Below are positions 11,002 to 22,140 of a stretch of DNA of 64,000 nt, piece by piece. The DNA comes from Eledone cirrhosa (Eukaryota). The stretch is from the NCBI GenBank assembly GCA_964016885.1, contig OZ024741.1, positions 217,062,001 to 217,126,000 of the forward strand, given 5' to 3'. A program made the translations under genes and the position numbers. Below the pieces are notes generated by a model, which did no database searches, was not told where the DNA came from, and saw only the letters and a program-made list of their open reading frames with translations. Each line of letters opens with the position of its first letter. Position 1 is the stretch's first letter.

Positions 11002-11136
11002 ATGGAGAAAACAACTATGATGACTATCTTAACAATTCCAAACGTGATGTCTTACCATTACCTGGTAGTAATGCTGTTGCTAACAATATCAAAGACTTCA
11101 GTTACACAGGCTTCTACAGTAGATCCCCGTTGTACG
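11002..11136 (+). CDS. Exon 1 (signal peptide) of a secreted AA15-LPMO-like protein with 6-Cys repeats
   Basis: Frame absent from the ORF track: MEKTTMMTILTIPNVMSYHYLVVMLLLTISKTSVTQASTVDPRCT, then GTAGGT donor at 11137; phase 0 matches the acceptor at 19229; hydrophobic core LVVMLLLTI; alternative start ATG at 11047. Confidence 0.62.
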
Positions 11137-11368
11137 GTAGGTACCATCTATCTTTTGGTTTAATTAGCCCCCTCCCTTCTCTTTTTACATGCTTCTATCT
11201 AAACCCCAAACGGTATCGTGGTGTATCGTCATTTATGTTTTTTTCTTTGTAAACCCTTAATGTTAATAAGCAAAAGATTATTATTATTATTGTTCTTTGA
11301 GTCTCAGTCATTGATGTTATTTAACTGGAAAGTTTGTTGAAATGAATATCAAGCCGCTACCTGCAGCC

Positions 11369-11911
11369 TCAGATATTCAGGACGTATCGGAGGGTTCTTG
11401 CTGTTCTCAGCAAGCATGCCTTTTGAAGTGTTCCAAAAAGCGGGGCTGGACTAATCTTCTTTAACCTTCCTTGAAAACTCTTTGAGATAGTACCTAGTGC
11501 ACCTATGACAATCGGGACTACCTTGATCTCACGACAGTCCCAAATCGTTTTTAACTCCCACTTTAAGTCCTGGTATCGGTTAATTTTCTCCCTCTCCTTT
11601 TCTTGCATTCTCGTGTCAAATGGGCAGGCTAAATCTACAATCAGGCACGATCTTTTTTCCTTGTCCAAAACCACCAGGTCAGGCCTATTGTGTTCTAATT
11701 TCTTGTCCGTCTGTATTCTAAAATCCCATAGCACCTTCACCTGATCGTTTTCTATCACTGACTCTGGCTTATGCTTATACCACTTCTCAGAATGTGGTAA
11801 ATTGTTTACTTTGCATAGATGCCAGTGGATCACCCTGCCTATCACATCATGTCTCCAGTCTTTATAGTGAGTCTGGGCTAGGTGTTTACACTCGGATACA
11901 ATGTGAGCCAC
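11369..11911 (-). mobile_element. R4/Dong-like non-LTR retrotransposon 3' fragment (restriction-like endonuclease domain)
   Basis: HIVSEC..RHD..WDFRIQTD..HNRPDLVVLDK..IVDLACPFD..EKINRY..VVPIVIGALG..LQKACLL are the RLE motifs; 5'-truncated; lies in intron 1. Confidence 0.9.
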
Positions 11912-12214
11912 AGTTATTTCCTTCTTTTCAGTTTGTATCTAATAACTTTCCTATTATCCTAGCTGTTTCAAGTAGAGTTTCTGTAACATTTCTACTGTAA
12001 GATTCTGGTTTAGTTTTATGTCAATCCATCAAGTCTTATTAGTATCGAAGGTGAGGGTGCTTGCCCTAGCGCTCGGGGTGACCGTAGCTTTTGTGGGCTT
12101 TATCCACGAGTGACCCTTGGAGTCCTCACAGCTGGGGAATTTATTATATTTGTTTTTTTAAATGTTTATTTTCTTAATCTTTCTTATAAATTTTATTTTA
12201 CACAAAAAACCACA

Positions 12215-13940
12215 CTTTACGTTCTGAGTCAAATCCCGCTGACGTTACCTTTGCCTTTCAACCATATGGGGTCGATAAAATAAAGCACCAGTAACGCACT
12301 GGGGTCGATTTAATCGACTTTCCCCTCTCTCCAAATTGCTGGCCTTGTTCCTAAAGTAGAAAATTATTTTTTTATTAACTGGGATTGTAGATAGACAGAA
12401 TATATGAAGTGTTGTTCTGGCTCGATCTTTTTCTTCTTTGCCCACTTATTCCTGGGAGGCTTATTCCTGGGAGGGTCTTGGGAACAGACATGCTTTCCAG
12501 AGGGTCCTTTCAGTAATAACTGTCTCCAGTTTATCCGGCTGGATCGCCAAGCTCATCGATGTTATCCAACCATTCTTGCTTGTGGCCTAACTCTTAACCT
12601 CCTGCAAGTTGACATTGTCCGTGAAATCTGTCCAGCGATTCTTTCTTTAATTGGTCGCGTCTCAACAAGGACCTTTCTGAGACAGCGCACTTTTCTGAGT
12701 ATACGTTCAGTGCCAAATTAGGGCATACAGTCTTTTGTAGAAGAGGTAATGTGTAATTTGTAATGTGTAATCAGCTTAGAACCTCTCTGTTTTAGTGCTA
12801 TCGAGTGCAAAGCTCTGATAACAAATGAAATTAATTTGATGTCGTTAGATGGTATGGACAACATTCGTGTGATTTCTGTCTTCAAGTTAGAATATTTTGT
12901 TATTTTCTTTTTTTAGAACATCGGACAAATGTTTAGCGATATTTTTCCTGGCTCTTTACTTTCTGAGTTCAAATACCGCTGAGGTTAGCTTTGCCTTACG
13001 AGGTCGATAAAATAAAGTACAAGTAACGTACTGGGGTCGAGTTAATCGATTTTCCCCTCCCCAAAAATTGTTGGCCTTGTACCTAAAGTAGAAACATGAT
13101 TATTATTATTATTATTATTATTATTATTCAGTAATGAACTGGGGGTAATTGCTGGCCTTGTGCCAAAAGTAGAAACTATTATTATTATTATTATTATTAT
13201 TATTATTATTATTATTATTAAAGGCGGTGGATCGTTCTATTAGCAGTATCGGTAGAGCGTCGGACAATATGCTTTACGGCATACAGTTGCGATTCTTTAA
13301 GTTCTGAATTCAAATCCCGCCGAGGTTAGCTTTGCCTTTCATCCTTACGGAGTCGATAAAATAAAGTACCAGTAATGCGCTGAGGTATTTGCTGACCTTG
13401 TTCCAAAAGTAGAAACAATTATTTGAGGTACGTTCCTATACACTCAATGATTCGAAAAATGAATTTGTTTCAGAGTTGAATTTTACGATATTGGTCTTTG
13501 TTGTTGTTTACTGTAAAAAACATGTTTTCTCTCTCCCATTGTGCCTGAAATAGAAACAATTATTATCAACTTTGCCTTTCATCCTTACGGGGTCGATAAA
13601 ATAAAGTACCAGTAATGTACTGAGTAATTGCTGGCCTTGTGCCTAAAGTAGAAACAATTATTATTATTATTATTATTATTATAAGTAATAACAGTTGTAA
13701 ATTACAGATACAATCCTTCTCGTATTATTAGCAGTATCGGTAGAAGGTCGGACGCCATGCTTTGCAGCATTTTAAGTTAACCTCGGCAGGATTTGAACTC
13801 AGACCGTAAAGGGCCGTAATTCTATGCTGCAAAGCATGGCGTCCGACCTTCTCCCGATATTGCCAATAATTGTTTCTACTTTTGGCACAAGGCCAGCAAT
13901 TACCCAGTGACACTTTATTTTATCGACCCTGTAAGGATAG
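12215..13940. mobile_element. Multiple Octopus-type SINE copies plus a degenerate RTE 3' fragment (12460-12730, minus)
   Basis: SINE cores at about 12220, 12960, 13300, 13570 (+) and 13780 (-) with (ATT)n tails; 12460-12730 resembles the RTE ends at 18655 and 25380. Confidence 0.75.
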
Positions 13941-19505: not shown

Positions 19506-19689
19506 GTAAGTATTATGCAGGGTTACTTTTGTTATTTTCGTGGGTTTAGTACTGAATAAGTAGTATATGCGGTTTTCTTGTGTTATTTTCGTGGGACCTA
19601 GTACTGGGTATGTAGAAAGGATTTTCCCTACATTCTTTTACAGGTTGTTTTCTTCGCATTGCCGGTCTTGTACCCGAATTAGAAACTGT

Positions 19690-21585
19690 TATTATTGTTG
19701 GCAGTGTCAGTAGAGGGTCATGCTTTACAGCGAAGAGTTACGACTCTTTATAGTCTGAGTTCAAATCCCGCTGAGATTCACTTTGCCTTTAATCCTTACG
19801 GGGTCGATAAAATAAAGTACCAGTAATACACTGGGGTAATTGCTGTCCTTGTACCAAAAGTAGAAACAATTATTATTGTTGGCAGTATCGGTAGAGCGTC
19901 AGACACCATGCTTCTCAGGCACAGAGTTATGGGCCTTTAAGTAGAAACAATTATAGTTGGTAGTGAGTGTTTCCTTTTTGTTGTGGATCGCCATTGATAA
20001 GGTCGTTGCCCTCGGTCCCCGGATTGTTGTTTTCCTCCGCCAAATCTGGAGCAGGGTATCTCACATGAGGAAGGAGCCCCACCAGATAGAATAGTTGATG
20101 CAGCGTGTATCGCTGGCTGATCTTCTCTCCGGCAAAGCTCTAACCATCTTGACCGCAGGGCACAGCTAAGATATATTGTCCAGCTAAGTATGTAGTGTTT
20201 GTCCCCTAGGGGAAAAGGCTGATATAGCGGATATCACTGACTGTTCTTCTATGGTCTAGAGTTTTCCTCCTCCTCCCTATCCCCTTTTATTTTTATTTCA
20301 GTCAGGATAAAGGTACCTTAAATAGGTTTCTTTTGCTCCGTTACTGGTTTCAAATATTGAACTGCGACCATTCTGGGACACCATCTTCGTCGCTTCTAGT
20401 CAATTATATCGACTCCAATATCTATATCAATCTGCTATTTGTTTTATCGATCTCTGTTTGTTGTAAATGGGTGGAACAGGTAAAAGAGAAGTGCTGCAGC
20501 ATGGTCACAGTCTAATGACTGACACGAATAGAAAAATAGTGCCACGCGGTTTCATTACTGAAACCATTAAAAACAATATGATCTTGTTTTCCTCTTTTCA
20601 GTTTGTATCCGATACTTTTCATATTATCCTAGCAGTTCCATATTATTATATTATTAGAGCGGTGGATTGGCAGTATCGGTAGAGCGTCGGACGCCATGCT
20701 TTGCAGCATAGATTTACGACCCTTTACGTTCTGAGTTCAAATTCCGCCAAGGTTAGCTTTGCCTTTCATCCTTACGGGGTCGATAAATTAAAGCACCAGT
20801 AATGCACTGAGATCGATTTAATCGACTTTTCCCTCCTCAAAATTGCTGACCTTGTGCTTAAAGTAGAATTCATTGTGGATTGGCAGTAGAGGGTCGGACG
20901 CCATGCTTTGACGCATAGAGTTGCGGCCCTTTATGGTCTGAGTTCAAATCCCGCCGAGGTTAACTTTGCCTTTCATCCTTACGGGGTCAATAAAATAAAG
21001 TACCAGTAATGTACTGGGTAATTGCTGGCCTTGTGCCAAAAGTAGAAACAATTATTAATGGTCCGTATGAATGAGCCTACTCTGACCATGCGCCTATAGG
21101 CTAGCTAATTTGAGGAGGAGATGGTGCTCTCCCCGGGTGCCCTAGAAGCGCAGGGTGGTTCAGGATTGATGGGGTACCTGAGTCACCCCTGGGTCGTCCA
21201 TCCCTCTATAGCGGAATTTATTTTGTTATATTTATGCATAGTTTATTTTATATTTTTCATATCTTGGTTGTTAAATTAGTCTAGCCATTGTGCACTTTTA
21301 CTCGAGCTTATCGTAAACCCCACTGTCCCTGTCTTTGTATTGTCCCCTACGTGTCGGCCCTTGTGGCCAATAAATGAAATCATTATTATTATTATAGGGC
21401 GGTGGATTGGCAGTATCAGTAGAGGGTTGGACGCTATGCTTTCCAGCACAGTTACGTCCCTTTACGGTCTGAGTTCAAATCCCGTCGAGGTTAACTTTGC
21501 CTTTCATCCTTACGGGGTCGATAAAATAAAGTACCAGTAATGTACTTGGTAATTGCTGGCCTTGTGCCAAAAGTAGAAACAATTA
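19690..21585 (+). mobile_element. Octopus-type SINE copies in intron 2
   Basis: SINE cores at about 19700, 20660, 20880 and 21400. Confidence 0.8.
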
Positions 21586-21637
21586 TTATTATTATTATTA
21601 TTATCATTATTATTATCATTATCTTTTCTAATTTCAG

Positions 21638-22140
21638 AAGACAGTAACCCGCCTGAGTATGTTGGCTGTAGCAAAGTGGCTAATCTGGAAGCTGCTCAAC
21701 AGTTGTCGGAAGGTAGTGGCTTCTTTACAGTAAGCACAAAATCAACCACCGTAATCAGTACAACGCTATCTACAACTAATTGTAAAGCTGTTGGTATTTA
21801 TAAAAGGGTACCTGGAATGAACCAATGGTGTGTCGTTCATTGCACCGCTGGTTATTGTCCACACACACATTGCATCTGTGACTCTGATGATACTCTCAAA
21901 TGTACGGTGGCGGACACCTACAAGAACACCCCAGGAATGTTAGAGTGGTGTTTCACCAATTGCCGTGCTGGACATTGTCCAGAAACACATTGCAAATGTA
22001 ACAATTCTAAAGTGACTCAGACGTGTACAGCTACAGGCGTTTATATAAATGTTCCTGGGATGAACCAATGGTGTAAAACTAATTGCCGTGCTGGAAATTG
22101 TCCAGCAACGCATTGCAAGTGTAGTACGACAGCAAAATAA
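21638..22140 (+). CDS. Exon 3 (terminal) of secreted AA15-LPMO-like protein: last strand, Thr-rich linker, three 6-Cys repeats
   Basis: Acceptor ttctaatttcAG at 21637; A+AA gives Lys, in frame with DSNPPEYVGCSKVA...; three repeats C-X15-C-X3-C-X4-C-X4-C-X-C with PGMxxWC and CPxTHC; TAA at 22138-22140. Confidence 0.9.

Follow-up and report, generated by a model that had tools for sequence, protein, structure and literature searches.

Gene E, a three-exon gene at positions 11002 to 22140 of the 64,000-nucleotide stretch of Eledone cirrhosa DNA analyzed here (the window; assembly GCA_964016885.1, contig OZ024741.1, positions 217,062,001 to 217,126,000 of the forward strand), is predicted to encode a secreted, disulfide-rich descendant of the AA15 lytic polysaccharide monooxygenases (LPMOs) that has lost the copper-binding histidine brace. 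On the basis of its sequence, we somewhat favor a role as a noncatalytic tether in the octopod cuticle or mucus coat, probably one that binds chitin through three C-terminal six-cysteine (6-Cys) modules. Gene E is the last of five tandem paralogues, genes A to E, and the family as a whole has likely turned from an enzyme into a noncatalytic, probably chitin-tethered coat protein.

The first-pass annotation of the window had joined three exons in phases 0 and then 1 with GT-AG ends, and this structure held up: the donors are GT, the AG acceptors are pyrimidine-rich, and a script translation of the joined exons gives 304 codons with no internal stops and 24 Cys residues. All three exons are on the + strand. 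The coding part of exon 1 (11002..11136; 135 nucleotides [nt]; phase-0 donor) encodes the signal peptide, a short mature N-terminus, and the first Cys (C44), and it is the only nonrepetitive signal-like candidate frame between gene D and exon 2. Exon 2 (19229..19505; 277 nt; phase-1 donor) encodes the core strands of the AA15-derived β-sandwich with four Cys residues and a conserved Trp, its donor lying four codons past this Trp, as in canonical AA15 genes. Exon 3 (21638..22140; pyrimidine-rich AG acceptor) ends with the stop codon at 22138-22140, which, together with the start of the 3' untranslated part (22138..22196, +), is covered by a spliced contig of 1,174 nt from run X1. In this contig, window positions 19228-19505 (record 338-615) directly abut 21638-22196 (record 616-1174) with no other letters and no gaps, and the predicted junction 19505/21638 was thus seen spliced in one contig of that run. 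The exon 3 stretch is present in four public runs of one study, none of which is recorded as RNA; in runs X2 to X4 (one sample), the contigs continue from the exon into the intron, i.e., they are unspliced at 19505. Because the genome has a single full match to exon 3, a retrocopy is ruled out as the source of the spliced contig. The 337 nt at the 5' end of that contig are unmapped, so junction 11136/19229 was not directly observed there, and the single base seen 5' of exon 2 is compatible with the last base of exon 1. Support for this junction comes from the orthologues of Octopus sinensis and Octopus bimaculoides, in which a signal peptide and Cys-x directly precede the residue aligned to the first codon of exon 2. 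No in-frame cassette exon in intron 1 passed our filter. Two minisatellites were also recorded, one in intron 1 (18212-18539; 41-bp unit, 8 copies, 99% matches) and one upstream of exon 1 (9538-9992; 183-bp unit, 2.5 copies).

The hydrophobic core of the signal peptide covers residues 20 to 29, and a hydropathy scan was read as placing the likely cleavage site after A37. Exon 1 gave no BLASTP alignment with the orthologue signal peptide, which is common among signal sequences. AA15 enzymes are defined by His1, His91, Ala89, Tyr184, and ten Cys residues (PMC5823890), and their substrate binding involves Tyr24 and Tyr166/Trp (PMC9156745). Exon 1 of gene E has no His after residue 19, and the only His residues within positions 1 to 154 are H19, ahead of the signal hydrophobic core, and H128, within CxxC; no His that could act as His1 occurs between residues 20 and 127. 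The site of the Ala89-x-His91 motif of the Thermobia domestica enzyme TdAA15A (19310..19330, +) reads LTDAGSF, the aligned residues being T-D-A-G, with Asp at the Ala89 position and Gly at that of His91. The alignments therefore confirm that both brace histidines are gone, and alignments to TdAA15A and canonical AA15 proteins likewise agree with the first-pass annotation that the protein lacks the N-terminal loop region and the GNxWG..GCG loop. The last domain strand, at the start of exon 3 (21638..21687, +), carries EYVGC, the Trp/Tyr-bearing GNxWG..GCG loop and its two Cys residues being absent. Both segments that carry the substrate-face aromatics Tyr24 and Tyr166/Trp are deleted, along with four Cys residues. 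The domain has six Cys residues in all five cluster genes; of the six full-size genes for which exon 1 is available, five have ten and one has 12. The axial Tyr (Tyr184 of TdAA15A) is kept as Tyr145, three residues ahead of the last domain Cys. Across the brace-less (degenerate) sequences, Asp or Asn occupies the Ala89 position in 8/10; of the 8 that extend over the strand with the axial position, 6 have Tyr there. A search of the 464 kb around the window with a profile built from five canonical first exons identified no His-bearing canonical first exon (best expect value [E], 1.4 among 21,010 open reading frames [ORFs]). Because the copper brace is lost, established LPMO chemistry predicts no oxidative cleavage of the LPMO type, and we are confident that the gene E product would lack LPMO catalysis. 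Since the substrate-binding aromatics are deleted, any chitin binding is more likely to occur via the 6-Cys modules than via the relic domain.

Descent from AA15 is indicated by gene structure and by a chain of profile searches. Pfam LPMO_10 matches seven loci in the 3.0-Gb genome, none of them in the cluster. Three coding exons in phases 0 and then 1, with the second intron at +4 relative to the Trp after CxxC, were found in 7/7 LPMO_10 loci and in 5/5 cluster genes, and the 6-Cys module is carried by six of the seven LPMO_10 loci. A profile of six His-bearing exon 2 sequences ranked genes A, D, C, and B at the top among 13,348 ORFs (E, 7e-8 to 3.5e-4), and a profile of A to D built without E found gene E exon 2 at an E of 1.9e-8. 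When a profile of degenerate sequences only was compared with the PDB, TdAA15A (5MSZ) was the sole significant row (E, 2.2e-5; the next of 8 rows had an E of 1.1), and profile-profile alignment (hhalign) of the degenerate sequences with AA15 gave a probability of 97.9%. A protein atlas placed the domain with LPMO-type clusters at 0.87, which we take as a lead only. The AA15 origin that had been proposed from the sequence is thus supported by the profile chain (canonical to A to D to E), the 5MSZ match, and the hhalign result, and gene E very probably descends from a group-I-type AA15 LPMO.

Five of the His-bearing AA15 genes of the genome have HG.. at the mature N-terminus and at least ten domain Cys residues, and one has its first exon beyond the stretch examined. 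One full-size AA15 gene (G000:C2:154069625-154081490) has Gln at both the His1 and the His91 positions, ten Cys residues, and two 6-Cys modules; it is placed among the canonical rows in the tree on a long branch and likely represents a second, separate loss of the brace in this genome. Elsewhere, two canonical AA15 genes with near-identical first exons and one 6-Cys module each lie in tandem (G000:C7:23337523-23360059).

The first-pass annotation had described a linker and three Cys repeats behind a domain of ~115 residues, and this description was borne out. The linker (21688..21780, +) has 31 residues, the second half being Ser/Thr-rich (71% S+T) and predicted to be O-glycosylated. The three modules (21781..21879, 21901..21999, and 22024..22122, all +) share one exact pattern, C-X15-C-X3-C-X4-C-X4-C-X1-C, whereas only 2 of 20,000 shuffles of exon 3 yielded even one module. 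What the first-pass annotation had not identified is that this is the repeat already described at the C-terminus of insect group I AA15 proteins, C-X15-C-X3-C-X6-9-C-X4-C-X1-C (PMC9156745, also PMC12955341); every spacing is equal except for X4 in place of X6-9. The insect repeat is reported to be unrelated to CBM14 (PMC9156745), and no CBM14 (peritrophin-A) row was seen for gene E in a Pfam scan up to an E of 10. All 18 genome matches to the module fall within AA15 or cluster genes, and the Trp, the Tyr, and the six Cys residues are kept across the two to five copies in cluster genes. Comparison of the module pairs within gene E gave a pooled nonsynonymous divergence (dN) of 0.31 and a synonymous divergence (dS) of 1.19 (dN/dS, about 0.26). 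Module 1, matched by pattern, also gave a confident model (predicted local distance difference test score [pLDDT], 91) with a strand, two helices, and a strand, with CxxxC placed on a helix and CxC on a strand. This 35-residue model had no scored match among solved structures, the module profile returned a chance row only from the PDB sequences, a protein atlas search with the modules gave no usable match, and a word-index search with exon 3 for longer homologous proteins retained 0/87 candidates.

The first-pass annotation did not mention that gene E belongs to a cluster of five same-strand genes of the same build, two of them giant mucins, in 464 kb around the window. On C2, the contig of the window, exon 2 is located at 216,859,930 in gene A (model, 358 amino acids [aa]), 216,910,803 in gene B (7,644 aa), 216,955,218 in gene C (348 aa), 217,030,528 in gene D (2,464 aa), and 217,081,229 (+) in gene E (304 aa). 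The first exons of the cluster genes are predictions, selected by filtering for a signal peptide and a donor site, and each of the five closes with Cys-x at a phase-0 donor. All of the models are open, with six Cys residues in each N-terminal domain and two to five 6-Cys modules per gene. Genes B and D continue into C-terminal PTTT repeats of thousands of residues (S+T+P, 90% and 86%, respectively), which gives them the long Pro/Thr/Ser domain of secreted mucins. The brace is lost in all five paralogues and in the named orthologues; gene C has a His one residue beyond the His91 site.

Some further features of the paralogues were recorded. A single exon of gene B (G000:C2:216913672-216936182) has an open frame of 7,500 codons in which five modules are followed by an Arg/Ile/Thr-rich stretch and then by the PTTT repeats. 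In the last exon of gene C (L006:1105-1947), the modules and linker are rich in His, Tyr, and Gly, in contrast to those of the remaining paralogues; His-rich segments are typical of cephalopod hard-tissue proteins. A duplicate of the start of the gene D last exon (G000:C2:217040774-217042200; 455 of 472 aligned bases identical) is out of frame with gene D, contains an in-frame stop, and is followed by a different Pro-rich repeat, reflecting either decay or an assembly error. A hydrophobic C-terminus of gene D that had been considered as a membrane anchor was rejected, as it is an out-of-frame reading of this broken duplicate exon.

The nearest named homologues of gene E are octopod proteins. 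Gene E is the best match among the five cluster genes for O. sinensis LOC115219204 and O. bimaculoides LOC106872312 (41% and 39%, respectively, over 262 columns). A search of 1.84 billion representative sequences with the domain profile yielded nine matches: the O. sinensis orthologue of E, an O. sinensis protein near C, an Argonauta hians protein near B, one unnamed degenerate member, two LPMO_10 proteins, and three long proteins. The last three, of 1,676, 6,971, and 2,060 aa and matched over many short stretches, were discarded as chance matches of immunoglobulin (Ig) repeats. No degenerate member from a squid, a cuttlefish, or another mollusc was among the nine; the library holds representatives only, so restriction to octopods is not established. 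Both O. sinensis genes (the matches of E and C) are listed on contigs of identical length, as would be expected of a conserved cluster. A tree of 19 domains, whose root is not known, places the 10 degenerate domains on one side of a branch with support of 100/99; among these, the two Octopus proteins are the partners of E (98/98), the O. sinensis match is that of C (100/99), and the Argonauta protein is that of B (89/89). Signs of maintenance include the open frames, the six domain Cys residues in 5/5 genes, a dN below dS in the modules, and the spliced contig. The public models of proteins P0007 and P0009 seem to be incomplete: that of P0007 continues past exon 2 into sequence resembling an intron, and that of P0009 has an Asn-rich tail that looks like a Thr repeat read in a shifted frame.

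A model of the O. sinensis orthologue domain, made with the degenerate-only alignment, is an all-β sandwich (pLDDT, 84.5; predicted TM score, 0.79). This model matched generic Ig-like domains best (Z up to 7.7; Foldseek TM of at most 0.5), and the best Foldseek rows include the copper-binding sandwiches CrdA and CopC (TM, <0.5). The fold comparison called for in the first-pass annotation thus gave an Ig-like β-sandwich, but no LPMO was found among the best 50 rows of each search (PDB Foldseek, VIA second look, VIA wide, and the viral library), which does not exclude a family beyond those rows. The sandwich model thus agrees with an LPMO core stripped of its loops and does not single out the LPMO fold, because its best matches are generic Ig-like domains.

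The same origin and the same loss of catalysis could also have led to a function away from chitin, the Ig-like sandwich being a protein-binding or oligomerizing head of a mucus or adhesion family and the modules binding other glycans or proteins. The deletion of both substrate aromatics, the plain Ig-like model with its generic best matches, the two giant mucin paralogues, and the N-glycosylation sequons, of which every paralogue has 1 to 6 within its first 200 residues, would all suit such a role. However, the module was inherited from chitin-active enzymes, with its Trp, Tyr, and six Cys residues kept in two to five copies, and we regard an off-chitin function as unlikely, although as one to be reckoned with. 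A defense or salivary protein, in which the sandwich is a carrier and the modules are small defensin-like units or sensors of chitin directed against fungi, parasites, or crustacean prey, seems improbable. Cysteine-stabilized α/β peptides have CxxxC on a helix and CxC on a strand, which is the arrangement of the module model; faint Pfam rows for such families (E, 0.088 and 0.009) were seen below the cutoff, and the long branch of gene E points to fast evolution. Against this, the module had no match among solved structures, it also occurs on AA15 enzymes of the housekeeping type, and dibasic release sites do not consistently separate the modules.

Three other explanations carry little weight. 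A rebuilt metal or ligand site, formed by Asp/Asn at the Ala89 position and the axial Tyr and used for a non-LPMO activity or for metal buffering, would account for the frequency of these residues in the degenerate sequences (8/10 and 6/8, respectively) and for the presence of CrdA and CopC among the best Foldseek rows. However, those rows are tied with unrelated Ig-like folds at a TM below 0.5, and the domain has no conserved His, Met, or free Cys, which makes such a site very improbable. That gene E is a decaying, functionless copy is harder still to credit: its long branch and the broken duplicate of the gene D last exon in the same cluster point that way, but the open frame, the 24 of 24 Cys residues in register, the correct splicing, the module dN/dS, and the orthologues in two Octopus species do not. 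The least probable explanation is an active LPMO with a missed His-bearing exon, for which the unmapped 5' end of the spliced contig would leave room; His91 is absent inside exon 2 itself, neither a canonical exon 1 in the 464 kb nor a passing cassette exon in intron 1 was found, and the named orthologues share the short N-terminus.

Several observations weigh against our reading of gene E as a chitin-tethered AA15 descendant. With the canonical His-bearing exon 2 profile, gene E scored weakly (E, 0.89), and a Pfam scan of its three exons returned no LPMO_10 and nothing at the cutoff; its assignment to AA15 passes through paralogues A to D. The relic domain, having no substrate face, gives no support to chitin binding, and gene E itself is not a mucin, as it lacks the long Pro/Thr/Ser domain. 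Its terminal branch is 1.45 changes per column, versus 0.11 to 0.13 for those of the two Octopus species, consistent with evolution that is fast or relaxed, and selection on the domain is poorly measured because exon 2 dS is saturated (between paralogues, dS is at least 1.7 or saturated, and dN is 0.5 to 1.2).

In the reading that we prefer, the tethered coat protein, it is the 6-Cys modules that would bind, with chitin as the most likely target, since they were retained and multiplied whereas the substrate face of the domain was lost. The relic sandwich may serve as a stable spacer or as a protein-binding head. The short members (A, C, and E) could cross-link or coat chitin fibers, and the long members (B and D) could anchor O-glycosylated PTTT mucin brushes to them, in the manner of the chitin-binding gut mucins of insects. 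Together, the mucin paralogues and the modules suggest a tool kit with which a chitinous layer could be coated or cross-linked. The first-pass annotation named beak, radula, and sucker cuticle as possible sites. Candidate sites exist, as the oesophagus, crop, and stomach of Octopus are cuticle-lined (PMC9501996) and the sucker cuticle is chitinous and rich in O-type/mucin-type glycans (PMC5607860). A more far-reaching scenario, which we offer tentatively and hold to be possible rather than probable, is that octopods made a structural family from a chitin-cutting copper enzyme. In this scenario, the proteins of a conserved five-gene cluster would have a cut-down LPMO sandwich with its modules as a head by which mucins as long as 7,600 residues are anchored to chitin; they would build a renewable cuticle and mucus lining of suckers or gut as an octopod counterpart to the squid suckerins and beak proteins, and the brace would have been lost twice independently in one genome.

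Other frames in the window were also recorded. At 57297-58925 (-), a frame of 543 codons weakly matches reverse transcriptase (Pfam RVT_1; E, 0.0011); it is flanked by inverted copies of the same sequence and is probably a retroelement. Mobile-element-like fragment frames are located at 11372-11938 (-), 59934-60440 (-), 38892-39449 and 48970-49861 (+), and 39681-40199 and 43346-43864 (-); some form near-identical pairs, and those scanned gave no Pfam row.

AA15 proteins have been noted in cephalopods (PMC10952591), and suckerin and histidine-rich beak protein are reported to be absent in O. bimaculoides (PMC9068888). A literature search for brace-less animal AA15 proteins or for these accessions, with supplements and subscription journals outside its scope, found none. 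AA15 is defined by its copper brace, and we did not find a brace-less animal subfamily described; the cluster genes are invisible to Pfam and annotated as uncharacterized. If they bind chitin, they are candidate proteins of octopod cuticles (sucker and gut lining) and offer a natural test of the function of the AA15 6-Cys repeat, an open question for the essential insect LPMO15-1. Some LPMO-like proteins are known to lack LPMO activity, and X325/Bim1, as is proposed here for gene E, puts the LPMO fold to a non-LPMO use; however, X325 retains the copper brace (PMC7924993), whereas gene E has none.

Among characterized enzymes, TdAA15A (5MSZ; PMC5823890) shares with gene E the signal peptide, the core strands, six of the ten Cys residues, and the axial Tyr position, but gene E has about 115 residues in place of about 195, no His1 or His91, Asp for Ala89, deletions of the Tyr24 and Tyr166 segments, and four fewer Cys residues. 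The insect proteins TcLPMO15-1 and LmLPMO15-1 (PMC9156745, PMC12955341) have the same order of an AA15 domain followed by tandem repeats of C-X15-C-X3-C-Xn-C-X4-C-X1-C; each is an intact enzyme that is encoded by a single-copy gene and required for cuticle turnover, and each has two repeats with n = 6 to 9, whereas the octopod cluster has five tandem genes with two to five repeats, n = 4, and no brace. The His-bearing AA15 genes of the same genome (seven LPMO_10 loci, six with the module) share the three exons, their phases, and the second intron position but differ from the brace-less, six-Cys cluster genes in that five of them have HG.. at the mature N-terminus and at least ten domain Cys residues. 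Fungal AA9 members with Arg for His1 are reportedly another case of the LPMO fold in non-LPMO use, with point changes in a full-size domain; the family described here is, in contrast, an animal AA15 reduced to its core and, in some paralogues, joined to mucin tails. Insect chitin-binding intestinal mucins and peritrophins combine tandem small 6-Cys CBM14 modules with Pro/Thr-rich tails, and genes B and D resemble the intestinal mucins in having 6-Cys modules and Pro/Thr-rich tails, although their module is reported to be unrelated to CBM14 and is accompanied by an AA15 relic head.

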